DNA of 64,000 nucleotides, taken from assembly GCA_049324235.1 (NCBI GenBank), contig JBMOLJ010000017.1:45701-109700 (forward strand). Direction: 5' to 3'. Of the stretch, positions 7,395 to 50,204 are shown piece after piece (the stretch's first letter is position 1; every line of letters starts with the position of its first letter). The translations under genes were made by a program, and so were the position numbers. The notes beneath the pieces are model-generated. The model saw nothing but the letters and a program-made list of their open reading frames with translations. It was not told the DNA's origin and searched no databases. This DNA is from Bacillota bacterium (GTDB lineage Bacteria > Bacillota > Clostridia > Christensenellales > UBA1431).

Positions 7395-8626
7395 AGGGGT
7401 ACCTCCTTTGGGTTCTGAGGCGTTGATACGCTCAAAAAAATGGAATCCAGGCATTTGATCAATGCGTCGACATGCTTATGCTGAATGATGAGCGGGGGGA
7501 GGAAGCGCAGCGTATTGTTTGCGGCCATGCCGATAACGAAGCCCTTTTTCAGCGCTTTCGCTGCAATATCGTGCGCTGCGACGGATTCGACAAGCTGCAT
7601 GCCGAGCATGAGACCCATGCCGCGCACATCCTTGATGAGGGCGGGATAAGCTTCCTTGAGTTTCTGCAGCGCCTGTTTGAAGTATGCGCCCGTCTCCACC
7701 GTATGCTCCATAATATTTGTATTCATAAGTTCATACAGCACGGCAAGCCCGGCTGTACAGGCAAGTGGATTGCCGCCGAAGGTCGAACCGTGGTCGCCGG
7801 GCTTGAACGCATTCGCCACTTCCTGCTTGGCTAAGAACGCGCCGATGGGAATGCCATTGCCAAGAGCCTTCGCAAGCGTGAAGATGTCAGGCTCGATCCC
7901 GAAATGCTCGTAGCTGAAGAGCTTGCCGGTGCGGCCCATGCCCGTCTGCACCTCGTCGAGTATCAGAAGCAGGCCGTGGCTTTTGCAGATCTCCTGTAGG
8001 GCTACAAGGTATTCCCTGGAGCATTCGATTACGCCGCCCTCGCCCTGTATGGTCTCGACCATGACCGCGCAGGTCTTTTCATTGATGGCGGCTTCCACGG
8101 CTGCGGCGTCGTTGTAGGGCACGTTAACAAAGGAAGGCGGCATCGGCTCAAAGGGAATGTGGTATTTTTCCTGTCCGGTCGCCGCCAGCGTCGCCAGTGT
8201 GCGGCCGTGGAAGGACTGCTTTGCGGTGATGATCTCGTAGCGCTTTTCGCCTTTATCGAAAAAGTATTTGCGCGCAAGCTTGATGGCGCCCTCGTTTGCT
8301 TCCGCGCCCGAGTTCGTGAAAAAGACACGGTCGGCGCAGCTGTGGGACACGAGCGCCTGCGCCAGCCTGGCCTGCGGCTCAATATAATACAGACTGGATG
8401 TATGGACGAGTTTCTCCACCTGCTCCTGTACAGCGGCTGTGAAGCGCGGATGCGCATACCCTAAAACGTTGACCGCGATACCCGCAAAAAAATCGATATA
8501 AGGCTTGCCCTCGGTATCGAAAAGCGTGCAGCCGTCGCCGGAGTCGAACGCGACCGAGAAGCGCGGCCCGAAGGTGTTCATGAAATACTTTGCGTCCAGT
8601 TCTTTTATTTGCTGCAGATCTTTCAT
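7391..8626 (-). CDS. argD: Acetylornithine aminotransferase (class III PLP)
   Basis: Motifs FFTNSGAEANEGAIKLARK, ILDEVQTGMGRTGK and TLAKALGNG (PLP lysine). GAAAGGA RBS. Confidence 0.9.
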   Translation of the reverse strand: MKDLQQIKELDAKYFMNTFGPRFSVAFDSGDGCTLFDTEGKPYIDFFAGIAVNVLGYAHPRFTAAVQEQVEKLVHTSSLYYIEPQARLAQALVSHSCADRVFFTNSGAEANEGAIKLARKYFFDKGEKRYEIITAKQSFHGRTLATLAATGQEKYHIPFEPMPPSFVNVPYNDAAAVEAAINEKTCAVMVETIQGEGGVIECSREYLVALQEICKSHGLLLILDEVQTGMGRTGKLFSYEHFGIEPDIFTLAKALGNGIPIGAFLAKQEVANAFKPGDHGSTFGGNPLACTAGLAVLYELMNTNIMEHTVETGAYFKQALQKLKEAYPALIKDVRGMGLMLGMQLVESVAAHDIAAKALKKGFVIGMAANNTLRFLPPLIIQHKHVDALIKCLDSIFLSVSTPQNPKEVPL

Positions 8627-8640
8627 TGCCAGAATCCTTT

Positions 8641-9513
8641 CTAATCCTTGGTGACCATCGTGCCGATGCCCTTGTCGGTGAATATTTCCAGCACGATGGG
8701 GTGCGGTATTGTGCCGTTGAGGATATGCGTGCGGTTGACGCCTTTTTTGAGCGCCTGTACGCAGCCGAGCACCTTTGGGATCATACCGCCTTCGATCATG
8801 CCAGAATCGATCGCGCTGTATATCTCGCTGACGGAGATCACTGGAATCAGCGTGGAAGGGTCGTCGCGCTCAGTGCGTATCCCGTCGATGTCGGTAAGAA
8901 ATATGAGCTTTTCCGCGTGCAGCGCCGCGGCCAGTTCGCCTGCGACGGTATCCGCGTTGATGTTATAGCTCTCTCCGTTTTCATCTACGCCGATTGGTGC
9001 GATGACGGGGATGAATTCATCGTCGGTAAGCAGCTTGATTACATTCGTGTTGATGCTTTCGATATTGCCCACGAAGCCAAGATCCTCACCGTCCATCAGC
9101 GGCGCCTTCGTGCAGCGGATCAGGTTTGCGTCGATCCCGCAAAGGCCGATGGCCCTGCCGCCCATCGCGTTGAGGCTTGCCACGATATCCTTGTTGATCT
9201 TGCCGGTTAAAACCATCTGCACAGCCTCCATGGTCTGGGCGTCGGTGATTCGCAACCCGTTATGGAAGCGCGTGGGTATATCGAGGCGCTTTAAAAGCGT
9301 GTTGATCTCCGGTCCGCCGCCGTGTACCACGATGGGGTTGACGCCGACATATTTCAAAAGCGTGATATCCTGCATAATCGTTTTCGTGATATGGTCTTCG
9401 AGCATGGCGTTGCCGCCGTACTTGATGACGACGGTCTTTCCGCTCAGAACCTGTATATAGGGCAGCGCCTCCAGCAGGACATTGGCGTTGTTGATCATTG
9501 CATCCATATTCAT
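8641..9513 (-). CDS. argB: Acetylglutamate kinase
   Basis: Motifs VIKYGGNAM, VVHGGGPEI and NINADTVAGELA. AAAGGAG RBS. Confidence 0.92.
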   Translation of the reverse strand: MNMDAMINNANVLLEALPYIQVLSGKTVVIKYGGNAMLEDHITKTIMQDITLLKYVGVNPIVVHGGGPEINTLLKRLDIPTRFHNGLRITDAQTMEAVQMVLTGKINKDIVASLNAMGGRAIGLCGIDANLIRCTKAPLMDGEDLGFVGNIESINTNVIKLLTDDEFIPVIAPIGVDENGESYNINADTVAGELAAALHAEKLIFLTDIDGIRTERDDPSTLIPVISVSEIYSAIDSGMIEGGMIPKVLGCVQALKKGVNRTHILNGTIPHPIVLEIFTDKGIGTMVTKD

Positions 9514-11092: not shown

Positions 11093-11115
11093 TAATGAGA
11101 CAGGAGCAAGGAATA

Positions 11116-19914: not shown

Positions 19915-21321
19915 ATGAATGCTTTTGCCGTACGCGCGGGATATCTGCTCCCGCATCCTCCCATAATCGTTCCCGGGGTCGGCGGGGGAAGGGAAACTGA
20001 GGCAGCTAAAACGATCGCTTCCATGGAAAGAGTGGCGGAGGAAATCGGACGGCTGCGTCCCGATACCGTCGTGCTGCTTTCCCCGCACGCGCCGGTTTTC
20101 AGCGATTATGCGTTCATGTACGATGCGCCTGTACTGAAAGGGGACCTGAAACAGTTCGGCACAAATGCCGAAGTCTCTTTTCATCAGGACAGCGCGTTGC
20201 GCGTGGAGATTGAGCGCCGGATGCAAGCAAACGGCATACCGGGCGGCGCGCTGGACGAATCGGTGATGCGCAGGAATCAGATCAAAAACACGCTTGATCA
20301 TGGCGCCGTGGTTCCGCTGTATTTTGCCGGGGCGAAATACAGCGGATTCAAGCTCGTCGTGCTGTCGGCGCCGGCGCTGGACATGCAGATGCTCTACAGG
20401 CTGGGGTACGTGATACGGGAAGCGGCTGAAGCTCTGGGCAGGAAGATTGCGGTCGTTGCCAGCGGCGACCTCTCGCACAGGGTCAATGCAGAAAGCCCGT
20501 ACGGGGCCTGCCCGGAAGGAGAACAGTTCGACAGTTTTATCAACGGTTCGCTGGAGGCTAACGATATTCCAAGGCTGCTGTCCGTTGACCATGCCCTGAG
20601 GGAGAAGGCGGGAGAGTGCGGCTACCGCCCGCTGGTCATGCTTTGCGGAGCGTTTGACGGGGTCAGGGCCGGTATACAGGTGCTGTCCTACGAAGCGCCG
20701 TTTGGCATCGGCTACGGCGTAGCAGCGTTCAGGCCCGTGGCCTATAGCGGTACCAGCGCGTTTGATGAGGCGCGGACGATGATTTCGAAAGGCAAAAACG
20801 AAAGCATGCATGTGCGGATAGCCCGTAAAACGCTTGAGAGCTATGTTCGGGACGGCAGGACGCCTGAACCTAAAGATTTCTTGGAATACGGAGAGGATGC
20901 GGGAATTTTCAGCCAACCGGCAGGCGTGTTCGTGTCCATCAAAAAATTCGGGGAGCTTCGGGGATGCATCGGTACTACGGGACCAACCACGGATTCCGTA
21001 GCGGAAGAGATCATCCAGAACGCGGTCAGCGCCGGTACGCGCGACCCGCGTTTTCCTCCTGTGACCGCCGACGAACTGGAATATCTGGATTACAGCGTCG
21101 ATGTGTTGAATCCGCCGCAGCCTGTTTCGTCCAAGGATGAGCTGGACCCTTCGGTGTACGGCGTAATCGTAGAAAATGGCTATCGAAGGGGCCTGCTCCT
21201 GCCCGATCTCGAGGGCGTGGACACCGTGGAAAGGCAGCTTGAAATCGCCTGCAAGAAAGCGGGAATAGACCCTGAGGGGGAATATGAAATTTCGAAGTTC
21301 ACCGTTACGAGATACAGGTAG
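19915..21321 (+). CDS. Fusion protein: class-III extradiol dioxygenase subunit-B-like (LigB/Memo superfamily) domain plus an AMMECR1 domain (AmmeMemoRadiSam system protein A-like)
   Basis: N-terminal half: [32 protein letters not shown]-terminal half: [18 protein letters not shown]...RDPRFPPV...[18 protein letters not shown], which are AMMECR1 hallmarks. Confidence 0.8.
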
Positions 21322-21338
21322 AGCGGGGTGAGATGCGT

Positions 21339-22196
21339 ATGAAACAGGCCATGTATTATGAAAAAATGGATGAAACCATGGTCAAATGCATGCTCTGTCC
21401 GCACGGCTGCCGTCTAAAGCCCGGACAGACGGGGATTTGCCATGCGCGCAAAAACATTGACGGCGACCTGTTTTCCCTGAACTATGGAAAGGTAACAGCT
21501 CTTGCGCTCGACCCGATAGAGAAAAAGCCGCTGAAGCGGTTTTTCCCCGGGAGCATGATTCTTTCGGTCGGGAGCTTTGGTTGCAACCTCAAATGCTCTT
21601 TTTGCCAGAATTGGCAGATATCCCAGTCGGAACAGGCTGGTAGGGACGCCACGCCCGAAGAACTGGCAGCGGCGGCGCAAAAGGCGGCCGATGCCGGAAA
21701 CAACATCGGGTTGGCGTATACCTACAACGAGCCGTCGATCTGGTATGAATTCGTATACGAATGCGCCGCGTTGGCGCATGAGCGCGGCCTGAAAAACGTT
21801 TTGGTCACCAATGGCTATATATCCAAAGAACCTATGGAGATGCTTCTGCCTCACATCGATGCAATGAATATAGATCTGAAATCTATGACCTCCGGGTTTT
21901 ACCGCAGCCTGTGCAAAGGGGAGATTGGGTTCGTGCAGGATACAATCAGGCTGTGCGCCGATGCCTGCCACGTCGAGGTGACGACCCTGCTCATTCCAGG
22001 GGAAAACGATTCGGAGGATGAGGTACGCGCCCTGTCTCAATGGCTTGCGTCGGTTTCGCCGGAGATTCCGCTGCACCTGACGAGATACCATCCCGACTAC
22101 AGGATGGGAAAACCGCAGATGGAAAGGGAAAGGCTGTTTGACCTGGCTGAGATTGCGGGGAAAACCCTGCGCTATGTTTTCTGCGGCAACGTTTAA
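21339..22196 (+). CDS. AmmeMemoRadiSam-system radical SAM enzyme (PflA-like activase family)
   Basis: N-terminal Cys-rich KCMLCPHGCRLKPGQTGICHAR and the radical-SAM CNLKCSFCQNW (CxxxCxxC). ATG at 21339 after GGGGTGAG, 18 nt after the upstream stop. Confidence 0.8.
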   Translation: MKQAMYYEKMDETMVKCMLCPHGCRLKPGQTGICHARKNIDGDLFSLNYGKVTALALDPIEKKPLKRFFPGSMILSVGSFGCNLKCSFCQNWQISQSEQAGRDATPEELAAAAQKAADAGNNIGLAYTYNEPSIWYEFVYECAALAHERGLKNVLVTNGYISKEPMEMLLPHIDAMNIDLKSMTSGFYRSLCKGEIGFVQDTIRLCADACHVEVTTLLIPGENDSEDEVRALSQWLASVSPEIPLHLTRYHPDYRMGKPQMERERLFDLAEIAGKTLRYVFCGNV

Positions 22197-22240
22197 GTAT
22201 ACTGTTATTATGCATATTAAACCGGCCATATCCAAAGGTG

Positions 22241-22267
22241 AAACCGCGATAATCATCGCGGTTTTTT
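22241..22267 (+). terminator. Intrinsic terminator
   Basis: aaaccgcgat-aatc-atcgcggttt followed by ttt. Confidence 0.8.
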
Positions 22268-22304: not shown

Positions 22305-22333
22305 TTGACATCCTGCGTTGCTGTTACTATATT
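22305..22333 (+). promoter_or_regulatory. Promoter of the kinase-HAD-kinase operon
   Basis: TTGACA (22305-10), 17-nt spacer, TATATT (22328-33). Confidence 0.6.
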
Positions 22334-22341
22334 ATAATTAC

Positions 22342-22364
22342 ATTCAGTATTCTGAATAATGAAT
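22342..22364 (+). promoter_or_regulatory. 23-bp palindromic operator, copy 1
   Basis: In ATTCAGTATTCTGAATAATGAAT, 10 of 11 symmetric positions pair (ATTCAnTATTC-N-GAATAnTGAAT). It starts 9 nt after the -10. The 24-nt string cattcagtattctgaataatgaat is identical at 26478-26501. Confidence 0.7.
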
Positions 22365-22503
22365 CAATATACGCTATGTGCGTATTTGTAAAGTCGGTTT
22401 TGCCACATAAAGGTTGTATACCAGATTCAAAAGGTACAATTACGGCAAGGGTGCTCAAAAAACCGGAATGATTTTGCTCCAATAAATTAAAGGAGGACTT
22501 ATC

Positions 22504-24039
22504 ATGGCGAAGTACTATGTCAGTTTTGATTGCGGTACGCAAAGCACAAAAACGGCGATTTATAGGGATGATACGGTTTGCATTGCGGAGGAGTCCATAC
22601 CGACCATAATCAACTATCCTGTCGCCGGATGGGCGGAGATGGACGCCGATCACTATCTGCAATCGGTGCGGGAGGGCATCAAAAGTTGCCTGCAAAAGAG
22701 CGGGATCGACCCGAACGATATCCGCGCCATCTGCGGCGACGGCATCATCTGCGGAATCGTAGGCGTGGACGGGGACGGAAATGCGATCACGCCGTATATT
22801 CCTTATCTGGACTCACGCGGGGCCGAGGACGCAAAATGGATCAGGAACAACCTGGAGCCGATATGGATTGAGGAAAGCGGAAACGCCATTGTTGACGCGT
22901 TCGAACCGCCGGTGATAGCGCGCTGGCTGATCAAAAACCATGATGAGTTCAAAAAGCGCGGCGCAAAGGTCCTGAACAACGGGCCGTACGTCCTGTCGCG
23001 TCTTGCAAAGCTGAAAGCCGAAGATACCTTTATCGATTGGGCTACGCTTTCGGGGTGGCTGATCGGCTATGACGCGGCTGCGAAAACCTGGTCCAGGAAG
23101 CAGATGGACAGCCTTGGCATCCCGATGAACCTGCTTCCCAAAATCGTTAAGCCATGGGACATCGTAGGGACGCTTTGCGCCGAGGAAGCAGCGCTTATAG
23201 GCCTGCCTGCAGGCATCCCCATTGCAGCGGGTGCGGGTGATACCATGCAGTCCAACTTGGGCTGCGGGCTGGTCGAGGCAGGGATGGCCGCCGACGTTGC
23301 CGGAACGGCGGCGATGTTCACGGTCATGGTTAACGGAATCAACGAAAACCTGAGCCGCAATTCCGGGCTGTTCTATTCCATCGGCACGCTGCCCGACACC
23401 TACTTCTATTGGGGGTACATCCGTACAGGCGGCCTGTCATTAAGGTGGTTCAGGGATAATGTCTGCAAAAGAGAAGGGGACAACACATTCTACGATGAAA
23501 TCCAGGAAGCAGCCAAAAACGTTCCTGCAGGTTCGAACGGCACGCTGTTCTTCCCGTACCTGCAGGGCGGGAGCGGCAGCCTGGAAAATGCCAGCGGCTG
23601 TTTCGTCAATCTGACAACCGCTTCCGACCGCGGGGAAATGTGGAGGGCAATACTCGAATCGATCGCGTACGAGTATCTGTCCCAGGCCGACAGTATGAGG
23701 GCGCATGGCATTGGCATCGACCGCGTGATCATCACGGAAGGCGGGAGCAAAAGTGACCTGTGGAACCAGATCAAGGCCGACGTGTTCGACGCCAAAACGC
23801 TCACGCTTACCAGGGCGGAAGGGGCCGTAATGGCCAACGCCCTCGTTGCCGCCTATGCGGTGGGGGATATACCGGACCTGAAAAAAGCCGTTGTCGAACA
23901 GGTTGCGATTAAAAACACATATTCGCCTGATACGGAAAACACGAAATACTACAGAAAGGCGTTTGAACTCCAGCAAAAACTCATCAGGGAGAAAATGACC
24001 GGGGCGTTCGACAGCCTCGCCGAACTCAGGAGAATTTGA
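22504..24039 (+). CDS. FGGY-family carbohydrate kinase (paralog 1)
   Basis: N-terminal SFDCGTQSTK (actin-fold phosphate-1 motif), GWAEMD, GAGDTMQ and the C-terminal FGGY_C pattern ITEGGSKSDLWNQIKADV. AAAGGAGG RBS. Confidence 0.85.
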   Translation: MAKYYVSFDCGTQSTKTAIYRDDTVCIAEESIPTIINYPVAGWAEMDADHYLQSVREGIKSCLQKSGIDPNDIRAICGDGIICGIVGVDGDGNAITPYIPYLDSRGAEDAKWIRNNLEPIWIEESGNAIVDAFEPPVIARWLIKNHDEFKKRGAKVLNNGPYVLSRLAKLKAEDTFIDWATLSGWLIGYDAAAKTWSRKQMDSLGIPMNLLPKIVKPWDIVGTLCAEEAALIGLPAGIPIAAGAGDTMQSNLGCGLVEAGMAADVAGTAAMFTVMVNGINENLSRNSGLFYSIGTLPDTYFYWGYIRTGGLSLRWFRDNVCKREGDNTFYDEIQEAAKNVPAGSNGTLFFPYLQGGSGSLENASGCFVNLTTASDRGEMWRAILESIAYEYLSQADSMRAHGIGIDRVIITEGGSKSDLWNQIKADVFDAKTLTLTRAEGAVMANALVAAYAVGDIPDLKKAVVEQVAIKNTYSPDTENTKYYRKAFELQQKLIREKMTGAFDSLAELRRI

Positions 24040-24102: not shown

Positions 24103-24798
24103 ATGAAGGTTGCCATTTTGGATTTCGACGGAACGCTTTTTGATTCTGCGCCGTTCTGGGAGAATACGATCAATACCTTTTTGCTGGAGCGGAACATCAC
24201 GCCGCCTCAGGACATTCTGGGCATTGCAAAACCTCTCGGCATCAGGGGCTGCGCGGAGCTGTTCAAAGAAAGGTTTGATATACCGGATGATACCATGGAG
24301 ATCGTGACTGCCTGGCGGTCGGAGGTAGGTAAGAACTACCGGTATACCATACCGCTCAAGGAATATGCCCGTGAGTACATCAATTATCTTCTGGACAAGG
24401 GGATCAAGGTCTGCATGGCAACGGCCATGGAACGGGAATTTTTCACCCCCGCCCTCATCCGCACGGGCATCTATGATCTTTTTGAACTGATCGTCACCAT
24501 CGAGGATGTAAAGGCGGACAAGAACAGCCCGAAGATATTCCTTCACTGTGCGGAGCATTTCGGGGTTACTCCCGCGGATTGCACCGTATTCGAGGATTCC
24601 TACAAAACCGCAGAAATCTGTCAAAAGGCAGGCTTTCATGTGATAGGCGTGGACGACGGCGTGTGCAAGAGCGATTTCGAAAAGATGCAGCCGTTTTGCG
24701 AGAGGTATATTTTCTCGTTCCGCGAATTGCTGGACGGGTATGAACCTGCGCCCAACATAGAAATGGAGCGGGCCAAAGATGCTATTGACGTTCTATAA
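24103..24798 (+). CDS. HAD-IA superfamily hydrolase (phosphatase / beta-phosphoglucomutase-like)
   Basis: Motif I DFDGTLFDS, motif II ATAM, and motifs III/IV K...FEDS. TAAGGAGAG RBS. Confidence 0.8.
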   Translation: MKVAILDFDGTLFDSAPFWENTINTFLLERNITPPQDILGIAKPLGIRGCAELFKERFDIPDDTMEIVTAWRSEVGKNYRYTIPLKEYAREYINYLLDKGIKVCMATAMEREFFTPALIRTGIYDLFELIVTIEDVKADKNSPKIFLHCAEHFGVTPADCTVFEDSYKTAEICQKAGFHVIGVDDGVCKSDFEKMQPFCERYIFSFRELLDGYEPAPNIEMERAKDAIDVL

Positions 24799-24858
24799 CT
24801 GAACAAAAATTTGTCAACGATACAAAAGTGCCTGATAAATTGAATAGGAGGAATGGTT

Positions 24859-26415
24859 ATGCCTAAGTATGTGGCAGGAATTGACGCCGGTACGACAGGG
24901 ACGACAGTGATGATAGCGGACACCGCGGGAAACGTCGTTGGGAGCGCATACAGGGAATATGCCTGTATTTACCGGCATCCTGGCTGGGTGGAGCAGGATA
25001 TGAATGCGATTTGGACGGCGATATGCGAAGCTTCCAGGGAAGCGATCGCGAAAACCGGCGTGGACCCCAGGGATATCGGTTCATTGGGCTTATCCAGCCA
25101 GCGCGGGACCTTTGCGGCCATAGACAGGGACTGGAACGCGCTGCATGATTCCATCGTGTGGTGTGACATGCGCGCGGGCGAGGAAGTGGAGTGGATAAAG
25201 AACAATATCGGCGCCGACAGGTTCCACGATATTACCGGCCTGCCCCTTTCAGGGCTGTGGTCTTTCGCCAAATTCAAGTGGGTGATGGACAAAAATCCCG
25301 AAATCTATGAAAAGGCGTGGAAGTTTGTAAACGGGCAGGAATGGTTCCTGCACAAGCTGGGTTCCGAGGTGCTTTTCTCCGATCCCGCATCGCTGACGAT
25401 GAACGGTATGATGGACATCTCCAAACTGCAATGGTCGGACGAGCTTTTACACGCTATCGAATTTGATACGGACAAGCTGCCTCCTATTTCCACGCCGATG
25501 ACGCAAATGGGCGTGATTTCCAAACAGGCGGCTGAAGCAACGGGCTTCGCGGAGGGCATGCCGATCTGTTCGGGCGGGGGCGACCAGCAGTGCGCGGCCA
25601 TTGGTTCGGGCGTTATCCGCGAGGGGCTTTCGGAAATAACGATCGGGACATCCTCGGTCATGGTGGCGCATGTGGACAGCAGCAAGCCCGACCCGGACCA
25701 GGCCGTTTTCTTTGGGGGTCATGCCATACCGCACAAGTGGGATATGGAAGGCGGCGCTTCCTCATCGGGCGTAAACCTGCGGTGGTGGAGAGATACATAT
25801 GCGCAGGCTGAAATCGGCCTTGCAAAGTCCATGGGGACAGACCCCTATGAGCTGATCGGCATGCAGGCCGAGAAAGCGCCGGTCGGCTGCAAGGGCTATA
25901 TGGTTTTCCCGTTCATGACAGGGCAGGTTACCCCGTATTATGTTGACAACGCGCGGGGCGGATCCCTCGGGCTTTCCCTGATACACGACCGCTCCATGAT
26001 GGCGCGTGCGGTCATGGAAGGCGCGGCCTTTGAACTGCGCATGATCGTAGCCGCGATGGAAAAGGTGCTGGGCAAGCCGTTTGACGCCGTCAGGCTTTCG
26101 GGCGGCGGAGCCAAGTCGCCGTTATGGTGCCAGATACAGGCGGACATGTACGGAAGGCCTGTCGAGCAGCTCAGGACGCAGGAGTGCACCACGCTCGGAG
26201 CGGCCATACTGGGCGCTGCGGGAGCCGGTTTATTCGCGGGCATAGAGGAAGCGGTTGAAAACATGGTGCATCCGTTCGGTATGATTGAACCGAATATGTC
26301 CAATCACGGAATATATACCGACATGTTTGAAATTTTCAGGAACGCTTTCCTGGCGCTTCGCGACGCGAATGTATATAATGATCTGGCTGCGGTGTCCGCA
26401 AAACATTGGGGCTAA
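24859..26415 (+). CDS. FGGY-family carbohydrate kinase (paralog 2)
   Basis: Motifs GIDAGTTGTT, GWVEQD, SQRGTF, GGGDQQCAAIG and LSGGGAKSPLWCQIQADM. I prefer the ATG at 24859, 7 nt after AGGAGG; the track start at 24853 abuts the RBS. Confidence 0.85.
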   Translation: MPKYVAGIDAGTTGTTVMIADTAGNVVGSAYREYACIYRHPGWVEQDMNAIWTAICEASREAIAKTGVDPRDIGSLGLSSQRGTFAAIDRDWNALHDSIVWCDMRAGEEVEWIKNNIGADRFHDITGLPLSGLWSFAKFKWVMDKNPEIYEKAWKFVNGQEWFLHKLGSEVLFSDPASLTMNGMMDISKLQWSDELLHAIEFDTDKLPPISTPMTQMGVISKQAAEATGFAEGMPICSGGGDQQCAAIGSGVIREGLSEITIGTSSVMVAHVDSSKPDPDQAVFFGGHAIPHKWDMEGGASSSGVNLRWWRDTYAQAEIGLAKSMGTDPYELIGMQAEKAPVGCKGYMVFPFMTGQVTPYYVDNARGGSLGLSLIHDRSMMARAVMEGAAFELRMIVAAMEKVLGKPFDAVRLSGGGAKSPLWCQIQADMYGRPVEQLRTQECTTLGAAILGAAGAGLFAGIEEAVENMVHPFGMIEPNMSNHGIYTDMFEIFRNAFLALRDANVYNDLAAVSAKHWG

Positions 26416-26438: not shown

Positions 26439-26466
26439 TTGACATACGCGTATATATAATTATAGT
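26439..26466 (+). promoter_or_regulatory. Promoter of the RuBisCO-like protein gene
   Basis: TTGACA (26439-44), 16-nt spacer, TATAGT (26461-66). Confidence 0.55.
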
Positions 26467-26478
26467 ATAAAAAGCAGC

Positions 26479-26501
26479 ATTCAGTATTCTGAATAATGAA
26501 T
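26479..26501 (+). promoter_or_regulatory. 23-bp palindromic operator, copy 2
   Basis: ATTCAGTATTCTGAATAATGAAT, identical to 22342-22364. It lies 13 nt after the -10 and 23 nt before the RLP start codon. Confidence 0.7.
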
Positions 26502-26524: not shown

Positions 26525-27841
26525 ATGAGCGGCAAAAGGAATTACGATCCCATTATTTTCTGCCAGTATGAATCACTGAATATGGAAGATTTCGTGGTAG
26601 CGACGTATCTGATGAGCGCGGAGACCACAGACGTATTGATGCGCGCGGGCGCAGTGGCTGTGGAGCAAACCACCGGCACGTGGGCGCGCGTCCCCGATGA
26701 AACGGAAGAGGTCCGGCAAAAGCATGTCGGGCGCGTAATTTCCGTGTATAACATTCCCGGCTACGAGATATCCTGCCCGGACAGAATCCGTACCTGCATC
26801 GTACAGATAGCATTCCCGTGGAGGAACTTCGGACAGCAGATGCCCGAGATGCTTTCCAGCGTTTTCGGAAACATCTCCCTCGTTGACAACCTGAAACTGC
26901 TTGACCTGTATTTCCCCAAGAGCTTTGTGGATGGGTTTAAGGGGCCGAAATTCGGGACGCAGGGCCTTAGGGACTTGCTCGGCATCCAGGACCGCCCGCT
27001 GACCATGGCCATGATCAAGCCCTGCACCGGTATACCCGTTGATGTTATTGAGCGCCAGTTCTATAATCTGGCCGTTGCGGGCGTCGACATCATAAAGGAC
27101 GACGAACTCATCGCCGACCCCGTGCATGCCCCGTACTATGAGAGGCTGGAAGCCTGCCTCCGCGCATCCGACAAGGCTTTTAAAGAGACCGGTAAGCGCA
27201 CGATTTATTTCCCCAACATAACCGACCGTCAGGACAGGATGTTTGAAAAGGCCCATAAGTCCATCGAGATGGGGGCACAGGCGCTGATGATCAACGCGCA
27301 TGCGTCGGGTTACGGCTGCCTGACTGCGCTCTCCTGCGACGAGAGCATCAACGTCCCGCTGCTTGCACATCCCTGTTACGGCGGCGCATCCTTCCTGAGC
27401 CCGACAACGGGAATGTCTTCAAGCCTGGTGTTTGGCAAATACATGCGTCTGGAAGGAGCCGACATCGTTGTTTACAACTGCGCATACGGAAAGGTTCCGG
27501 GTCTGGTCGACCGCTATGTGCGCATAGGGCAGAGCCTGCTCTCCAAATTCTATGACCTCAAACCGGCATTCCCGAGTCCGGCAGCAGGACTCCATCCCGG
27601 TATGGTACCCACCGTTATGAGCGATCTTGGACCGGATACCCTTCTCGGAGCCGGTGCAGGCATGCATGCGCATCCGATGGGCATGAAGGCCGGTATTGAC
27701 GCGCTTTTGCAGGCTGCAGAGGCTTGGAAGCTGAATATCCCGCTGGAAGAGTACGGCAAGGATCACCCCGAGCTTCAGGCGGCACTGGACATCTGGGGCG
27801 TTTATGACCCCCATAAGAGCATCTTCGAATTAACCAAATAG
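26525..27841 (+). CDS. RuBisCO large-subunit-like protein, form IV (RLP); not a carboxylase by motif content
   Basis: It aligns by eye to RbcL: EQTTGTWA (ESSTGTWT), VFGNIS (GNVFGF), DRPLTMAMIKPCTG (IKPKLG, second Lys replaced by Cys), AGVDIIKDDE (GLDFTKDDE, with the carbamyl-Lys/Asp/Glu triad kept), AHPCYGG (H327 region). There is no GKLEG loop-6 lysine. PSPAAGLH replaces PVASGGIH. Confidence 0.85.
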   Translation: MSGKRNYDPIIFCQYESLNMEDFVVATYLMSAETTDVLMRAGAVAVEQTTGTWARVPDETEEVRQKHVGRVISVYNIPGYEISCPDRIRTCIVQIAFPWRNFGQQMPEMLSSVFGNISLVDNLKLLDLYFPKSFVDGFKGPKFGTQGLRDLLGIQDRPLTMAMIKPCTGIPVDVIERQFYNLAVAGVDIIKDDELIADPVHAPYYERLEACLRASDKAFKETGKRTIYFPNITDRQDRMFEKAHKSIEMGAQALMINAHASGYGCLTALSCDESINVPLLAHPCYGGASFLSPTTGMSSSLVFGKYMRLEGADIVVYNCAYGKVPGLVDRYVRIGQSLLSKFYDLKPAFPSPAAGLHPGMVPTVMSDLGPDTLLGAGAGMHAHPMGMKAGIDALLQAAEAWKLNIPLEEYGKDHPELQAALDIWGVYDPHKSIFELTK

Positions 27842-27851
27842 TGGGGGTTGG

Positions 27852-27889
27852 GAAAGCGTGTGCTTAACGTACACGCTTTCGCTTTCTTT
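27852..27889 (+). terminator. Intrinsic terminator after the RLP gene
   Basis: gaaagcgtgt-gcttaacgt-acacgctttc followed by gctttcttt. Confidence 0.7.
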
Positions 27890-28055
27890 GACGCATCAAA
27901 GCGCATAATGTATGGTTATAAAAGCGGCTATGTCGCAAACCTGAAATACTATATCAAAGAAATACGTATGAATTCCACCAATGTCAACGTGGCGATAACA
28001 TCCTGTTACGGCTAATCATTTAATATAGTACGACATCGATTTACATAAATGAAGG

Positions 28056-28084
28056 TTGCGGGACACGTCATAACTTGTTATACT
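28056..28084 (+). promoter_or_regulatory. Possible promoter of kinase 3
   Basis: TTGCGG, 17-nt spacer, TATACT. It lacks the palindromic operator seen at the other two promoters. Confidence 0.35.
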
Positions 28085-28194
28085 ACAAATAATCAAAACG
28101 ACATATCGGCAATCCCCATTTTCATATGAAGCATTGGCAGCGATAGCTCCGATAAATATATTTTCCCAAAAAAATAATACAGGAGGTTACTACA

Positions 28195-29715
28195 ATGGCG
28201 AAGTACATTCTTGGTATCGATGACGGGCTCACCAATTCCAAGGCGGTATTGTTCACGCTCGACGGAAAAGAACTGGGTTCCGCGAGCAGGCATTTTGAAG
28301 TGAGCAGCCCCAAACCCGGCTATGTTCAGGCCGATCCGGTTCAGCTTTGGGAGAACACCGCGGACTGCATCAAGGAGGTTATTGAAAAGACCGGGGTTGA
28401 CCCTGCTGAAATCGGTGCGATCGGCGCTACCGGATTCGGAAATGGCGCTGTCTTTATCGCAGCCGACGGGTCTCCCGCGTATGCTGCTTTTGGCTCGAAC
28501 GACGGCCGTGCCGTCGATATAGCGCAAAGGCTGAACGATTCGGGTGCGGGCGCTGAGATTTTCAAGATCAACGCGACGGGCGCCGGGTCGTGGCAGCCCT
28601 TGACCCAGGCGCTCTGGCTGAAAGAAAACGAACCCGAGGCGTATGCCAAAATCGATTGGCTCTGCCAGTGCAAAGACTGGATCAATTTCAAGCTTACCGG
28701 TAACCGGATGACAGAAAAGAATGACGTTTCGGGCGCCGGATATATCGATTTTTCCACGGGTGAATACAACAAAGAAATATTCTCGCTGTACGGTGTGCCT
28801 GAACTGGCCGATAAGGTTGCCCCCATGGCGGAGTTCAGCCACTCGATCGTCGGTACTGTCAACGCAGAGGCTGCAAAACGCACAGGCCTCAAGGAAGGGA
28901 CGCCGGTCGGCGCAGGCATGATGGACGTTGCGGCCTGCAGCATCGGAACCGGCGTTATCGATGAAAAATATGCGTGCGTCATTGTGGGAACATGGTCCAT
29001 AAACCAGGTGATCATCGATCGTCCCCTCCCGAACATGACCTCCGTGCAGTTCTTTGATCTGCCCGGTAAAATTCTGAGCCTTTCCGGATCGGCAACTTCC
29101 GCTACAAACGTCGAATGGTTTGTCACCGAGTTCGGACAGGGATGTGCTGTGGAAGCCAAGGAGCGCGGGATATCGAAATACGATATAGTGACGGAAAAAG
29201 CCGCAACCATCCCCGCCGGCGGAACCAGCGTGCTGTATCTGCCGTTCATCGGCATGCCCAACGTCCATGCACGCGGACGCGCAGGCTTCTCCAACATTGC
29301 CATGGGCCATACGTTTGCCGACCTGGCGCGCGCCCTGTTTGAAGGGATCACCTTCGAGCACAAGCGCCACATCGATATCATCAAGAGCCAGGGAGCATCC
29401 GTCACGGCTGTCCGTCTGGCAGGCGGCGGAGCGAAGAGTCCGTTCTGGAGCCAGATGTTTGCCGATATCCTCGAAGTGCCGGTCGAAGTGGTCGGGGTTG
29501 CAGAACTCGGAGCGCTTGGTACGGCCATTGCCGCGGCTCTCGGCGCCGGAATCTACAAAGACTATGACGAGGCGCTCGGGAAGGCGGTTGAAATCAAGAA
29601 GACGTTCTATCCCATCGCCGAAAACACCAAGGCATATATGAACCGTTACAAGAGCTGGCAGGCTTTGGTGCAAACGATGATCGCCGGTTGGGATAAGGGT
29701 GGAATCGAACCGTAA
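28195..29715 (+). CDS. FGGY-family carbohydrate kinase (paralog 3), L-xylulose/3-keto-L-gulonate kinase (LyxK)-like
   Basis: Motifs [40 protein letters not shown] (compare E. coli LyxK WLKEHEPERYAQIG...DYLRWCLTG, as I recall it), [10 protein letters not shown] and [29 protein letters not shown]. Confidence 0.85.
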
Positions 29716-29773: not shown

Positions 29774-29902
29774 GCGTAGGGCTTTTCATATACAGCCCTC
29801 ACCACACACGGGGAATGATTCGTGCGGCGTTTTGACAGCAAGGACATATATGTTATAATGGACAATAGATGAATTTGCAAATGAGAAGGAAAAAATCACA
29901 GT

Positions 29903-30835
29903 ATGACTATGAAATTACTGACCAAACAGGGCGAGATCGTTGCAAAGCTGGCAAGACAGCTTCTTACGGTTTCACCCGGGTATCGCCTGCCCAGCGTAAG
30001 CGATTACTGTAACATGTTTTCCGCGGGCGCCGGCACTGTGCACGCCGCCTTGCGCACGCTTACAAATTCCGGGGCGATTGAGCTGGAGATTCATGGTCAT
30101 CAGGGGACGGTAATTACGGGTCTCAACCGCATGATCCTTTGGAAATTCAGCCTGAACACGCTGTTTTACGGAAGTATGCCCCTGCCGTACACATCAAGGC
30201 TGCAGGGCATGGCTACCGCGATATACGAGCAGTTTGAGGAAGCGGGCATCCCGTTCAGCCTTGCATATGTGCGGGGCGGCCGCATGCGCATCCAGAGGCT
30301 GCTGGACAAACACACGGATTTTGCCGTCTGCTCCCGACTTACCGCCAGGCTTGCGCGAAAAGAGTATCCGGAGCTTTTTACGGTGATGGATTTTGGGCAC
30401 GAAAGCTATCTCACCCACAGCATGCTGGTTTTCTCAAAACCAGGCATCACCGCCATTGAGGACGGCATGCGCGTAGGCGTTGACGAATCCTCCTATGACC
30501 ATCCGGAGCTGGTAAAGGTTGCCAGCCGCGGCAAAAACGTGACGTTCGTACCGCAAAGCTATAACCAGATCATATCCAAGATACGAAAAGGCGAAATTGA
30601 CGCTACGGTATGGAGCCTTGATGAAATCGAGGAAAAGTATCCGGGGCTGAACATGGTGCCCGCTGAAAACTCGGAAGAAATGAAATCCATTACCTATGAG
30701 AGCGCCTGCGCGGTCATACTCATCCGCGAGGATACGAAGTTCTGCGCGTCTATTCTGCGCGAGGTGCTTGATCTGGAAAAACTCAGCAGGATACAAAAAG
30801 AGGTCATGGACGGGCACAAGACGCCGTCATATTAA
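29903..30835 (+). CDS. YhfZ-type transcriptional regulator (GntR-like winged HTH plus a periplasmic-binding-protein-like C-terminal domain)
   Basis: The N-terminal region LPSVSDYCNMFSAGAGTVHAALRTLTNSGAIELEIHGHQGTVI is a GntR-like wHTH. The roughly 230-aa C-terminal domain has an alternating beta-alpha pattern, as in E. coli YhfZ (family assignment from memory, not from a search). Confidence 0.6.
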   Translation: MTMKLLTKQGEIVAKLARQLLTVSPGYRLPSVSDYCNMFSAGAGTVHAALRTLTNSGAIELEIHGHQGTVITGLNRMILWKFSLNTLFYGSMPLPYTSRLQGMATAIYEQFEEAGIPFSLAYVRGGRMRIQRLLDKHTDFAVCSRLTARLARKEYPELFTVMDFGHESYLTHSMLVFSKPGITAIEDGMRVGVDESSYDHPELVKVASRGKNVTFVPQSYNQIISKIRKGEIDATVWSLDEIEEKYPGLNMVPAENSEEMKSITYESACAVILIREDTKFCASILREVLDLEKLSRIQKEVMDGHKTPSY

Positions 30836-31051: not shown

Positions 31052-32542
31052 ATGGCGGAGAATACGAACAGACTGGGTTACCTGATGGAAATGCTGGATA
31101 TTTCGGGCAAGGAATTGGCGCAGGCGCTGACCGTCGATGCAACGACGGTCAGCAAATGGAAGAACAACCAGCGCAAGCTGACATACAAATCAAAGTATAC
31201 CCGGAAAATCGCAGGGTACTTCCTTAACAGCGCAATGCAGAGCAAGCGCGGGAAGATCACCGCCCTGCTCACAGCATACATGCCGGAGCTGAATATTGGC
31301 AGCGAGCATCAGCTCGTCGATGCGCTATGCCTTTGGCTGACCGAAAAGGGAACCGAACCGCCGGTGATGGTCGGGAGCACATCCGTAAACAGGTTTGCCC
31401 CTGAAAACGGCTATGTCGCCAACGTAAGGGTCTATACCGGCTATAAAGGGATAATGGAGGCGCTGGCGACATTCTGGGAATACACATTAACGCTTCCGTA
31501 CGGACAGGAAATACTCCTTGCAGATTACAGGGATATCAATTTTGACGAACAGGACCCGTCCGACATCGTCCGCATGATGAAGTTTTTCATTGACGCCGCA
31601 GAATACGGGCATACGATAAAGATCATCGACTGCGCTACGGATGTATTCAGGCCTTATGTGGCCATATTCCGCTGGCTGCCGATGTATCTTTCGGAAAATG
31701 TTCAAGTCTGGCGCTATCAGGATTTCATGAAGAGGGAGACCCGCATGAGCACCTTTGTATTGCCGGGGGAAATAGTGCTTAGCAGCTTTGCGGTTGACAC
31801 GTTGCCGGGAGTGCACCACAGCATGATATTTCATGACAGGGATACCGTCCGTTTCATGGAAGACAGCGTGCGTGCGATTCTGGCAAACTCCAAAAAAATG
31901 ATAGAGACGATTAAAGCCGCGGATGTATTGCGAATGCTGGAGATACTCGACGGCCATCTGAAGTCGCGGCAGCTCACGTACATGCTCAACCCCGTCCCTA
32001 CATTCAGGAATATGCCAATAAGACTGCTCAGGGAGATACTCGAAGAAAACGGAGTGGAGGAAGGCATCATTAGCATATGCTTGGAGGCAAACCGGAGAAC
32101 GCGCGCGGTCAGGGACCGGTGCAGATATATACAGATTTACGATCTGGACGCTATGGAGGCCCGGGTGCACAGCGACTTTATTGTCGATTACGACCTGTCG
32201 GCCATATGCGGCAAAAGGATAACGGTTCCGAAAGCATGCTATAAAAGGCATTTGGAATACCTGCTGGGCATCAAAAGCTCGGAAAACTATTCCATGACAA
32301 TGACATCGTTTTCAGCGCTCGGGCTGCTGTCCACCACGATAAGCATCATCGTCCAGGATGACAGCCTGGTCGTGGCCTGGGATCCGGAGCGGTATCCACG
32401 GAGGATGTACTGCATGGACCTTCAGGTGATAAACGGTTTTTATACGTATATCGAGGACCTTTGGAAAGCGATACCTCCTATTTGCAAGGATGACGGCTGG
32501 AAGTGCAAACAGCTCAACAGAATGATACAGATGCTGACATGA
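31052..32542 (+). CDS. XRE-family HTH regulator with a large uncharacterised C-terminal domain
   Basis: The N-terminal region LGYLMEMLDISGKELAQALTVDATTVSKWKNNQRK is a Cro/C1-type HTH. I could not assign the remaining roughly 430 aa. Confidence 0.7.
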   Translation: MAENTNRLGYLMEMLDISGKELAQALTVDATTVSKWKNNQRKLTYKSKYTRKIAGYFLNSAMQSKRGKITALLTAYMPELNIGSEHQLVDALCLWLTEKGTEPPVMVGSTSVNRFAPENGYVANVRVYTGYKGIMEALATFWEYTLTLPYGQEILLADYRDINFDEQDPSDIVRMMKFFIDAAEYGHTIKIIDCATDVFRPYVAIFRWLPMYLSENVQVWRYQDFMKRETRMSTFVLPGEIVLSSFAVDTLPGVHHSMIFHDRDTVRFMEDSVRAILANSKKMIETIKAADVLRMLEILDGHLKSRQLTYMLNPVPTFRNMPIRLLREILEENGVEEGIISICLEANRRTRAVRDRCRYIQIYDLDAMEARVHSDFIVDYDLSAICGKRITVPKACYKRHLEYLLGIKSSENYSMTMTSFSALGLLSTTISIIVQDDSLVVAWDPERYPRRMYCMDLQVINGFYTYIEDLWKAIPPICKDDGWKCKQLNRMIQMLT

Positions 32543-32814: not shown

Positions 32815-34245
32815 ATGGCAGGGACGAAGAAATTAGGCCTGTTCAGTGCGGTAAGTACATGCGTCGGGCTGATTGTAGCGACGAGCTGTCTGGTATCTTT
32901 GGGAACAGGGTCCGGTTTGGCGGGGGCCGGGTTTGCTATACCGTTGGCGATAGCGGTTGTCCTTAACATGTTTATTGCGTTATCATTCGGAGAACTTCAT
33001 GCCATGATGCCCAATGTTACCGGAGGCATGGGACAATATACCGCGACGGCGCTGGGACCTGTTCCGTCCATTATTTCGAACATATCGGCGTACGTGTTCT
33101 GCATGGCGTTTGCGGCAAGCGCGGAGGCCGTGATGTGCGGACTTGTTTTTACGCAGGCCTTTGCGCCGGACTGGAACCCGTTGGTTGTGAGTACGGTGGT
33201 AACGCTGATACTGCTGGCAGCCAACTTCAGAGGGATCGACATGTTCGCAAGGATACAGAATGTGACCGTTACGCTGCTGATCGGCTCGCTGGCTGCGCTC
33301 GCGATCCTAAGCTTTTTCATGATTGCGCCCGGTCAGCCTGTGACTACGGTGGAAACCCCGGCGATTACCGGCTTTGGCGATCTCGCAGGCCTGGCCGCAA
33401 TCGGATTCTGGCTGTTTATCGGTGTTGAATTTGTAATACCGATTTCCAAGGAACTACGCAATCCCAAGAGGGACGTTTTGCTCGCTATGGTTATCGGCCT
33501 CGTCGTATTGTTTGTGGTACAGCTGCTCTTAGGGATCGGTATGACCAATTATGTTCCCCTTTCCGTACTTTCCTCGGAAGCCATGCCCCATATAGTGTTT
33601 GCGCAAAGCCTTCTGGGTGATGTGGGCAAGTACTGGATGGGAATTATTACGTTGCTTGCCGGCGTCAGTACGCTCAATACGGTGCTGGCCAGTTCGACCA
33701 GGATCACAGCAGGAATGGCGGAAGGCGGCATGCTTCCCAGGTTCTTTGCAAAGGAGAACAAAAAGGGAGTACCCTTTGGAGGCTTGCTCTTGCTTACCGG
33801 AAGCATACTGGGCATTGTCCTAACGGGCCTTGGGAACTCTGCTGACCTGATCACTATGATTCTCACAGGCTCCTGCTTCTGGCTTGTTTCCTATATTATT
33901 ACGCATGTTAACGTACTGGTCCTGAGAAGAAGGTATCCGCAGCGCGCGGCGGCGTGGAAGTTCAAGCTGTTTGGAATACCGCAGATAATAGGGATTATCG
34001 GCTGTGTGTATATGATTATCAACATCAGCCCGGATCCGGATGCCAAGACCATAATATTTACGGTATTCGGCATAGCGCTCGGGTTGCTCATTACCTATGC
34101 AACGGTCTGGACCAAGTTCGTTATGAAAAAGGGCATTTTTGAGCACGTTCCCATCGAGGCGGTCATTGCAGGAGGGCCGGTTGGCAGGGAAATGGATGAG
34201 CCGGAAACGCAGCCTGGTGTTGCCGCGGGCAAGAGCGCCATATAA
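32815..34245 (+). CDS. APC-superfamily amino acid/amine permease
   Basis: 476 aa with about 12 hydrophobic segments and an APC-type N-terminus (LGLFSAVSTCVGLIVATSCL). GGAGG RBS. Confidence 0.85.
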   Translation: MAGTKKLGLFSAVSTCVGLIVATSCLVSLGTGSGLAGAGFAIPLAIAVVLNMFIALSFGELHAMMPNVTGGMGQYTATALGPVPSIISNISAYVFCMAFAASAEAVMCGLVFTQAFAPDWNPLVVSTVVTLILLAANFRGIDMFARIQNVTVTLLIGSLAALAILSFFMIAPGQPVTTVETPAITGFGDLAGLAAIGFWLFIGVEFVIPISKELRNPKRDVLLAMVIGLVVLFVVQLLLGIGMTNYVPLSVLSSEAMPHIVFAQSLLGDVGKYWMGIITLLAGVSTLNTVLASSTRITAGMAEGGMLPRFFAKENKKGVPFGGLLLLTGSILGIVLTGLGNSADLITMILTGSCFWLVSYIITHVNVLVLRRRYPQRAAAWKFKLFGIPQIIGIIGCVYMIINISPDPDAKTIIFTVFGIALGLLITYATVWTKFVMKKGIFEHVPIEAVIAGGPVGREMDEPETQPGVAAGKSAI

Positions 34246-49173: not shown

Positions 49174-50204
49174 AAAACGATAGACGAAAACCCGCGTTCA
49201 TTATTTTTCTATTGACTGTTATCTCATTATTGGCAGGCTGCCAAACAGGGGACGGGGCGGAAACCGCCACGCAGACAAAGTTCATGCTGGGGACGGTGAT
49301 AACGCTCACGTCGTATCAAAAAGATGCGGACGACGCACTGAGCGCCGCGTTTGACCGAATCGCACAGATTGAATCCGAAATGAGCGCCAAAAAAGCGGGT
49401 ACAGAAATCGATACACTGAACACAAAGGGGACGAACAAGCTTACATCGGACGTTTTTTATGTTCTGAAGAAAGCGCTGGAAATGGCAAAACTGTCCAAAG
49501 GGGCGTTTGATCCCACGGTCCTTCCGCTGAGCAGGCTCTGGGGGATTGACGACGATACAAAGGCAAAGATAGTTCCTGCCGCGAGGGAAATCGAAAAGGC
49601 GCGCGCTCTCGTGGACTATAAAAAAGTGGGACTTGACGCAAAAACCCGGACCGCCGCTATTCAGACGGGTATGGGCGTGGACCTTGGCGGTATTGCAAAA
49701 GGCTACGCGGCGGATGAAGCCCGGCGTATTTTCAAAGAAAAGGGTGTTAAGAGCGCGATTCTGGATCTTGGCGGGAACGTTGTGGCCATCGGGAACCGGC
49801 CGGACGGACAGCCGTGGCGCATCGGCATCCGTGACCCGCGCGCCCGGGAAGAGGGCGGTTACTACGCCGTGCTTTCAGTCAGAGATCAGGTTGTCGTGAC
49901 GTCCGGCGACTACGAACGCTATTTTGAGGTGAACGGGGTGCGGTATCACCATATTTTCGATACCGCGACGGGGTATCCCGCAAAAAATGGTGTAATAAGC
50001 GCGACAATCATATCAGGGAATTCTACGGAGGCGGATGCCTTGTCCACCGCGGTATTCGTGCTTGGCGTGGAGAAGGGCCTGGCGTTGGTGGAGTCCGTTG
50101 AGGGGACGGAAGCGGTTATTGTGACGGACGATAAAAAGGTGTACACAACGCCGGGAATCAGGGACAAGGTGGAGATCGTCTCAAAGGAGTATGTGCTGCA
50201 ATGA
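49170..50204 (+). CDS. apbE: FAD:protein FMN transferase (ApbE family lipoprotein)
   Basis: Lipobox LLAGC, with motifs FDPTV, DLGGIAKGYA, TSGDYERYF and HHIFD. Its ATG overlaps the rmuC stop. Confidence 0.88.
   Translation: MKNDRRKPAFIIFLLTVISLLAGCQTGDGAETATQTKFMLGTVITLTSYQKDADDALSAAFDRIAQIESEMSAKKAGTEIDTLNTKGTNKLTSDVFYVLKKALEMAKLSKGAFDPTVLPLSRLWGIDDDTKAKIVPAAREIEKARALVDYKKVGLDAKTRTAAIQTGMGVDLGGIAKGYAADEARRIFKEKGVKSAILDLGGNVVAIGNRPDGQPWRIGIRDPRAREEGGYYAVLSVRDQVVVTSGDYERYFEVNGVRYHHIFDTATGYPAKNGVISATIISGNSTEADALSTAVFVLGVEKGLALVESVEGTEAVIVTDDKKVYTTPGIRDKVEIVSKEYVLQ

Follow-up and report, generated by a model that had tools for sequence, protein, structure and literature searches.

We analysed a 64,000-nucleotide (nt) stretch of a Bacillota bacterium of the Christensenellales (assembly GCA_049324235.1, contig JBMOLJ010000017.1, positions 45,701 to 109,700; the whole stretch is hereafter called the window). 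In it, a gene for a form-IV RuBisCO-like protein (RLP) lies among genes for FGGY-family carbohydrate kinases and a HAD-family phosphatase, close to a gene for a YhfZ-type regulator of the GntR family. The subject of this work is a palindromic 24-mer, CATTCAGTATTCTGAATAATGAAT, which occurs twice on the + strand of this locus, at 22341-22364 and 26478-26501, with no mismatch between the copies. An initial annotation of the window had reported this identical pair, taken it for the repressor operator of a small regulon, and left three possibilities for the cognate protein: the YhfZ-type regulator, an XRE-type protein encoded at 31052, or something encoded elsewhere. The locus is laid out as follows (protein lengths in amino acids, aa).

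About 22240-22267: terminator-like hairpin and T-run of the preceding AmmeMemoRadiSam operon, read directly
22305-22333, + strand: promoter P1 of the kinase operon, TTGACA-17-TATATT, 11/12 consensus positions (promoter scan)
22341-22364: predicted operator O1, dyad 22342-22364, starting 8 nt past the -10
22504-24039, + strand: FGGY-family carbohydrate kinase 1 (FGGY1), 511 aa; Pfam FGGY_N and FGGY_C, under every NCBIfam equivalog cut-off
24103-24798, + strand: HAD-IA family phosphatase, 231 aa; Pfam Hydrolase and HAD_2
24853-26415, + strand: FGGY-family kinase 2 (FGGY2), 520 aa, the final gene of the P1 operon
26439-26466, + strand: promoter P2 of the RLP gene, TTGACA-16-TATAGT, 11/12 consensus positions (promoter scan)
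26478-26501: predicted operator O2, dyad 26479-26501, starting 12 nt past the -10
26525-27841, + strand: RLP, form IV, 438 aa; Pfam RuBisCO_large and RuBisCO_large_N
27852-27880, + strand: strong intrinsic terminator of the RLP unit, with a 12-bp stem and then a T-run
28195-29715: third FGGY kinase, with its own promoter
29832-29859, + strand: yhfZ promoter, TTGACA-16-TGtTATAAT, 12/12 consensus positions with an extended -10
29903-30835, + strand: yhfZ, 310 aa, a GntR-type winged helix and a YhfZ_C effector domain
31052-32542: 496-aa protein without a Pfam family at the default threshold
32815-34245: amino-acid permease

Each 24-mer stands just downstream of a promoter. A promoter scan agrees with the initial annotation in placing the 23-nt cores 9 and 13 nt past the -10 elements. 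Since the sites start 8-12 nt past a strong -10, they would span the point where transcription starts and the first transcribed bases, with a predicted extent on the transcripts of about +1 to +24 for O1 and +5 to +28 for O2. O2 ends 8 nt ahead of the RLP gene's Shine-Dalgarno sequence, AAGGAGG, and a 140-nt leader separates O1 from FGGY1. No terminator was found between FGGY2 and P2, so read-through from kinase 2 into the RLP gene is possible.

The core reads ATTCAGTATTC-T-GAATAATGAAT, and direct reading finds the palindrome as it had been described, with 10 of 11 symmetric pairs and G6 against A18 as the sole break. The dyad is laid out as four tetramers in a 7-bp phase, ATTC-N3-ATTC-N-GAAT-N3-GAAT, over 23 bp; it can also be parsed as a pair of 16-bp palindromes, ATTCw-N6-TGAAT, that overlap with a 7-bp offset. 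The identity between the two copies ends abruptly at the downstream edge of the 24-mer, beyond which the regions are unrelated, while upstream P1 and P2 have in common only TTGACAT.C.GCGT and TATAnTATAA. No third copy was found in the window, on either strand, at up to three mismatches, and 100 dinucleotide-preserving shuffles of the window gave no match to the 24-mer.

A few features of the surroundings deserve mention in their own right. The RLP is MtnW/YkrW-like yet scores below the equivalog cut-off (NCBIfam NF007095, 362.8 bits against 409). Long untranslated leaders precede kinase 1 (22365-22503) and kinase 3 (27881-28194, about 310 nt past the RLP terminator), neither with an Rfam match. 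The former received no support as a riboswitch-like element: a related locus (L017, described below) has a 330-nt leader with which it is not conserved, it has no Rfam match and its fold has a z-score of -1.6. Just upstream of the locus, at 19915-22196, lies an AmmeMemoRadiSam system consisting of a fused LigB/Memo-like and AMMECR1 protein (468 aa) and a radical SAM partner (287 aa), which appears to be unrelated to the regulon.

Sites in related loci

YhfZ loci were collected by a profile scan of one genome per species with a 13-sequence YhfZ alignment, which yielded 80 of them; the same genome contigs scanned with a single YhfZ protein gave no relatives. Sites were found in the relatives by mismatch-tolerant and matrix scans, the exact degenerate pattern ATTCNNNATTCNGAATNNNGAAT having given no match in the first four loci. 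All related loci in which a YhfZ orthologue (43-80% identity) lies beside RLP or FGGY genes have a related 23-mer at the target operon, within its promoter or leader. Related sites are thus present at orthologous RLP, FGGY and HAD operons adjoining yhfZ in at least eight other lineages. This backs the small regulon of the initial annotation (FGGY1, HAD and FGGY2 together with the RLP), and the comparison with related genomes that it had suggested finds the motif conserved at orthologous target genes where yhfZ is present.

The closest relatives (L001, L002 and L005-L012), whose RLP is about 90% and YhfZ about 80% identical to those of the window, have a different gene order, with an SDR-dehydrogenase-aldolase-dehydrogenase-FGGY3 operon divergent from an SDR-RLP-yhfZ operon. 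In the promoter of the latter, TATAAT is followed directly by ATTCAATATACTGAAT(G/C)TTCATT. This site retains the left 16-bp palindrome of the window site; moved along by 7 bp in an alternative alignment, it reads as a 23-bp dyad overlapping the -10.

At intermediate distance (L014-L017), YhfZ is 45-48% identical and its gene lies beside RLP or FGGY kinase genes. L017 (YhfZ 46%) has ATTCAGTAAACTGGATAATGAAC 12 nt past a TATAGT -10, upstream of FGGY1-HAD, and an alignment of its promoter with P1 shows the -35, the -10 and the operator conserved and the leader not. L015 (48%) has two sites between yhfZ and the RLP gene, one of which, ATTCAGTATTCTGAATAGTGAAC on the opposite strand, is identical to the window core at 21 of 23 positions. 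L014 (48%) has two sites of the form TTTCAGAATGCnGAATAnTGnAT, and L016 a single weaker site. Three further loci (L194, L195 and L196; YhfZ 52, 43 and 53% identical) were held out of all matrices. In each of them the best 23-mer of the entire locus of about 16.5 kb falls in the promoter or leader of the adjoining FGGY/RLP operon, and in L195 it lies directly past the -10 of an RLP-HAD-FGGY1-yhfZ operon.

The target genes themselves recur in these loci. RLP orthologues lie beside yhfZ in many of them, FGGY1 orthologues (55-78% identity) adjoin yhfZ or the RLP gene in L003, L004, L017, L195 and L196, and HAD occurs with FGGY1 and the RLP in L003, L004, L017 and L195, making a recurring RLP-HAD-FGGY1 module. 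In L003 and L004 (RLP 75-78% identical), a SorC-type regulator takes the place of YhfZ and the motif is absent. The motif therefore follows the regulator and not the targets.

Several observations on these loci stand apart from the question of the operators. L015 (10001-11270) and L017 (10001-11460) belong to the same genome, Christensenellales bin220 (JAXGLZ010000001.1), which thus has two YhfZ paralogues, one by RLP-SDR-FGGY3 and the other by FGGY1-HAD, each with its own ATTC/GAAT-type sites. The window has a single YhfZ, two identical sites for the RLP and FGGY1-HAD-FGGY2, and none at FGGY3, a pattern suggestive of regulon fusion or of the loss of a paralogue. P2 (26461-26471) and the L017 promoter (about 11093-11103) have the same -10 region, TATAGTATAAA, although YhfZ identity between the two loci is only 46%. 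The GTAT within the window copy lies 14 bp, that is two 7-bp units, before the first ATTC; it could represent an additional operator unit or reflect a chance resemblance between -10 elements. Finally, the predicted YhfZ-controlled operon of L194 (9206-16195) joins an FGGY kinase and an RLP with GlpA-like FAD dehydrogenases and an Fe-S/CCG protein, a combination hinting that the RLP pathway can supply a glycerol-3-phosphate-dehydrogenase-like oxidation.

The YhfZ family and its predicted binding motif

The protein encoded at 29903-30835 scores 309 bits against the NCBIfam model YhfZ_full (cut-off 260) and exceeds the cut-offs of both Pfam HTH_41 and YhfZ_C. Its residues 76-310 match PDB 2OZZ (E=6.5e-23), a YhfZ_C-type domain with a periplasmic-binding-protein-like fold, solved without DNA or ligand. 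Its gene belongs to the same locus as the sites, 3.4 kb downstream of them. The first 100 residues of its 496-aa neighbour give a sub-threshold match to HTH_3 (E=8.8e-4, 19.7 bits against a cut-off of 23). This neighbour forms a singleton cluster in a collection of 15 billion proteins and has no homologue in the more than 90 YhfZ or RLP loci that bear the motif; we regard it as an orphan putative DNA-binding protein.

We then asked how far the motif accompanies yhfZ beyond the RLP-associated clade. A symmetrised matrix was built from six near-clade sites, those of the window included, and run on 74 loci in which YhfZ is less than 40% identical and the neighbouring genes are unrelated. A match of at least 12 bits lies within 200 bp of yhfZ in 41 of these 74 distant loci (26 upstream, 22 downstream), against about 0.6 upstream and 0.5 downstream in dinucleotide shuffles; the remaining 1.17 Mb contain only 25 matches. 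In 48/74 loci the top 23-mer of the whole locus of about 17 kb is no more than 250 bp from an end of yhfZ, where position alone would give 2.6 (binomial P about 3e-51, the loci not being fully independent).

Iteration on the distant sites gave the consensus ATACAATATACwGTATATTGTAT, or ATACAATATAC-w-GTATATTGTAT, of which the window carries an ATTC/GAAT variant. In 58/74 loci these distant sites take up stereotyped positions, most having their centres 22-57 bp ahead of the yhfZ start and 23-49 bp past the stop. The architecture of the family as a whole is ATWC-N3-ATWC-N-GWAT-N3-GWAT, and many loci have paired matches 7 bp apart.

Run on the window, the near-clade matrix ranks the two sites first with 31.4 bits, the window sites being among its input. 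The family matrix, made from the distant sites, also ranks 22342 and 26479 first, with 21.6 bits. The next independent match scores 11-13 bits over the two scans, 13.0 bits with the family matrix, and lies within an open reading frame at 49399. A weaker match at 26472 overlaps O2 with a shift of 7 bp because of the 7-bp phasing of the units. No matrix site was found upstream of the third kinase (28195), yhfZ (29903) or the 496-aa gene (31052), and the yhfZ promoter region (29832-29859) contains no match of 7 bits or more. With the mismatch scan above, this upholds the statement in the initial annotation that the window has no further copy, including upstream of kinase 3 and of the regulator genes.

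The two forms of the motif go with a difference in the winged helix. In an alignment of this domain, distant YhfZ members combine a GHLGT wing with an Arg ahead of the G-T-V/I-Q motif that opens the recognition helix, and in the RLP-associated clade a GHQGT wing goes with Ala, Ser or Val at that position. In the YhfZ of the window the residue is Ala43, followed by G-T-V-H. Among 54 distinct sites of Arg-type YhfZ proteins, TAC/GTA units average 2.41 against 0.41 for TTC/GAA; the 15 sites of non-Arg proteins (A, S, V or Y) show the reverse preference. The contrast has a Mann-Whitney P of 7e-8, or 0.002 for six distant non-Arg lineages that include E. coli and Chloroflexota, in statistics that ignore kinship and rest on few independent lineages. 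As far as it goes, this supports a reading in which loss of Arg where the recognition helix begins goes with the ATTC/GAAT variant.

In E. coli K-12 (NC_000913.3, 3503000-3516000; L092), the best matches in 13 kb are at 9346-9375, where ATTCAATTTACTGAAAATTTATT lies just before the yhfZ ATG, and at 8004-8033, where ATTAAATATTCATTTTTTTGAAT lies in the gap between yhfY and yhfX. Both are weak, at 11-14 bits, yet rightly placed, and are candidate operators of E. coli YhfZ.

Taken together, the regulator gene is in the locus, a dyad stands at the RNA polymerase start region, the dyad is conserved along with the regulator, and a statistical tie joins the two across the family. The 496-aa protein was tried as the cognate and set aside, since it has a sub-threshold HTH_3 match only, is an orphan and is absent from every motif-bearing locus; this absence, together with the way in which the motif follows yhfZ, points to YhfZ as the cognate protein with high probability. 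Of the candidates that the initial annotation had named, YhfZ thus gains from the excess in distant loci, from which the protein at 31052 is missing. On this comparative evidence, both 24-mers are most likely operators of the YhfZ-type regulator encoded at 29903-30835, in the form that this clade gives to a family-wide YhfZ operator.

Some points weigh against this reading. Because the near-clade matrix served as the seed of the family matrix and the loci are not phylogenetically independent, the P values and the covariation test are over-optimistic. The promoters and transcription starts are consensus predictions. Only some of the 23-bp dyad survives in the L001-type site, whose two alignments, with six mismatches each, are equally good, which makes its register ambiguous. 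The yhfZ gene of the window has no flanking site, unlike that of most distant family members, and the third FGGY kinase has none here either, although both genes are co-regulated in relatives. Moreover, the two copies are identical even at the family-degenerate positions 6, 7, 12, 17 and 18 and at an extra 5' C. Such perfect identity exceeds what operator selection alone would predict and hints at recent copying of a promoter-operator cassette; it suggests that the two cassettes share a recent origin.

Alternative readings of the sites

YhfZ could bind these sites and yet act as an activator, a dual regulator, a roadblock or a looping element instead of a simple occluding repressor. We consider this unlikely. 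L014, L015, L194 and L196 have their sites 35-120 nt past the predicted -10, and in L014 and L015 two sites are about 80-120 bp apart, a spacing that suggests a roadblock or looping in those loci. In the window, L017, L195 and the L001-type loci, however, the site abuts or overlaps the -10 and start region of promoters at 11-12/12 consensus, for which no activator is needed. GntR-family members with sites so placed are typically repressors, which also counts against activation.

It is quite improbable that the sites are operators of another protein, be it the 496-aa protein with its possible helix-turn-helix or some regulator, perhaps a global one, whose gene lies elsewhere. The 496-aa gene directly follows yhfZ and its product has the HTH_3 match described above; the motif centre, TTCTGAA, faintly resembles a CodY box, and TGAAT and ATTCA are the pentamers said to make up ARG boxes. 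Yet homologues of the 496-aa protein are absent from the motif-bearing loci, and the motif tracks yhfZ and is missing from the SorC-type loci L003 and L004. Known boxes were also tried directly and rejected. The 15-bp CodY box (AATTTTCWGAAAATT) has no match in the window at up to three mismatches. The ARG box (TGAAT-W4-ATTCA, in pairs) matches at site 1 only, with two mismatches and no second box, and its count in the window equals chance. A cre site was dismissed by eye, there being no central CG.

That the element works in RNA, the first 24 or so nt of both transcripts forming a 5' hairpin that lends the mRNA stability or serves an RNA-binding protein as its target, we consider very improbable. 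The sites lie past the -10 and hence are probably transcribed, and the 24-mer folds into a 6-bp hairpin of -4.9 kcal/mol (z=-2.5). This hairpin is nevertheless weak, and it is not part of the minimum-free-energy fold of the RLP leader, itself unremarkable with z=+0.24. At a permissive E-value, Rfam returned only sroH, at 19 bits against a gathering threshold of 80 (E=0.45), which is noise. Orthologous sites, for example in L017 and L014, keep the half-site sequence and break the complementarity. L001-type sites overlap the -10, and many distant sites lie past the yhfZ stop in either orientation, positions that fit the recognition of duplex DNA.

Hardly credible is a copy identity without regulatory meaning, produced by a recent duplication of a promoter cassette or by a small dispersed repeat: the copies are indeed identical at family-degenerate positions and P1 and P2 have extra upstream bases in common, but sites persist at the same position at YhfZ identities of 43-53% while the surrounding non-coding DNA shows no conservation, there are just two copies in 64 kb, a common origin of the two cassettes is compatible with functional operators, and a metagenome scan of 241 million records with the degenerate 18-base pattern ATTCANNATTCNGAATANTGAA gave only 101 scattered matches with unrelated flanks and neighbouring genes, which speaks against a widespread repeat family. 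These matches include GAATTCA tandem repeats and unrelated long palindromes. None of the 101 lies beside a YhfZ, RLP or FGGY homologue, a result that is uninformative on the association with yhfZ.

Long near-perfect palindromes with ATTCAATATTCGGAATATTGAAT-like cores, such as CCTATAATATTCAATATTCGGAATATTGAATATATAGGT, were seen in metagenome contigs L107 (3872-3910), L142 (321-359), L157 (706-744), L126 (278-316) and L103 (9714-9752). No YhfZ, RLP or FGGY gene lies near them in those contigs, and they may be operators of some other regulator.

Predicted regulation of the locus and its family context

If the 24-mers are YhfZ operators, as we think likely, YhfZ bound at O1 would block open-complex formation or promoter escape at P1 (FGGY1, HAD and FGGY2), and YhfZ bound at O2 would do the same at P2 (RLP). 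Since yhfZ is served by a consensus promoter of its own at which no site is found, its product, the predicted repressor, is probably made constitutively. A pathway metabolite, probably a sugar or sugar-phosphate of the kinases or the RLP, would bind YhfZ_C and release the protein from the DNA. Each site might take a single dimer making extended contacts, or a dimer on each of the overlapping palindromes. A roadblock or looping mode may apply in relatives whose sites lie 35-120 nt past the promoter or come in pairs, as in L014 and L015.

Local repression through palindromic operators at target promoters is ordinary in kind. The system resembles those of the GntR regulators FadR, HutC/NagR-DasR and YtrA in its locally encoded regulator with a GntR-type winged-helix N-terminal domain, in its AT-rich dyad over the promoter and start of adjacent catabolic operons, and in the presumed release through a C-terminal effector domain. 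It differs from them in that this domain is YhfZ_C, periplasmic-binding-protein-like, and not of the FCD, UTRA or aminotransferase-like type, and in that the site, with four tetramers in 7-bp phase over 23 bp, is longer than the typical 15-17-bp GntR box. Canonical GntR operators reportedly follow a GT-N(x)-AC arrangement. The window units read TC...GA instead, so that the initial annotation was right to find no such core in this clade; the family form does have GTAT and ATAC units, with AC placed 5' of GT.

E. coli YhfZ (b3383, in the yhfZYXW-php-yhfUTS cluster) likewise belongs to the YhfZ_full family and combines HTH_41 with YhfZ_C. It is only about 32% identical to the window protein, and its putative targets are an aminotransferase, a mutase and a phosphotriesterase homologue, with neither RLP nor FGGY kinase. 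Palindromes offset by 7 bp also occur in the overlapping-dimer boxes of DtxR/IdeR or Fur, as where two dimers bind different faces of the DNA, but that protein family is unrelated and the likeness purely formal. The SorC/DeoR-type loci (L003 and L004, from Lachnotalea glycerini and relatives) share the FGGY1-HAD-RLP module (60-78% identity) and a local sugar-phosphate-sensing repressor; their regulator is of the Sugar-bind type (PF04198), and the ATTC/GAAT motif is absent from them.

We found no paper in the searchable literature on the operator, regulon or ligand of YhfZ, E. coli YhfZ included, and nothing relevant on HTH_41, on PF14503 or on RLP together with FGGY. The consensus ATACAATATACwGTATATTGTAT and its ATTC/GAAT variant would therefore be the first predicted binding motif for this uncharacterised subfamily, which is found in Bacillota, Chloroflexota, Streptomyces and enterobacteria including E. 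coli. A bolder generalisation, which we put forward as possible though doubtful, is that YhfZ proteins follow a common code, in which two overlapping dimers would read four ATWC/GWAT tetramers spaced in 7-bp phase and the third base of each tetramer (A or T) would be set by one residue, Arg or small, where the recognition helix begins. In the present locus this code would join the sugar chemistry of three FGGY kinases and the RLP in one inducible pathway, whose inducer would identify the RLP substrate.

For the organism, the sites delimit a compact predicted regulon around a form-IV RLP. The predicted joint control of FGGY1-HAD-FGGY2 and the RLP by YhfZ narrows the search for the substrate of the pathway, an intermediate of which is likely to be the YhfZ ligand, and the two operators could serve as a reporter in screening for that substrate.

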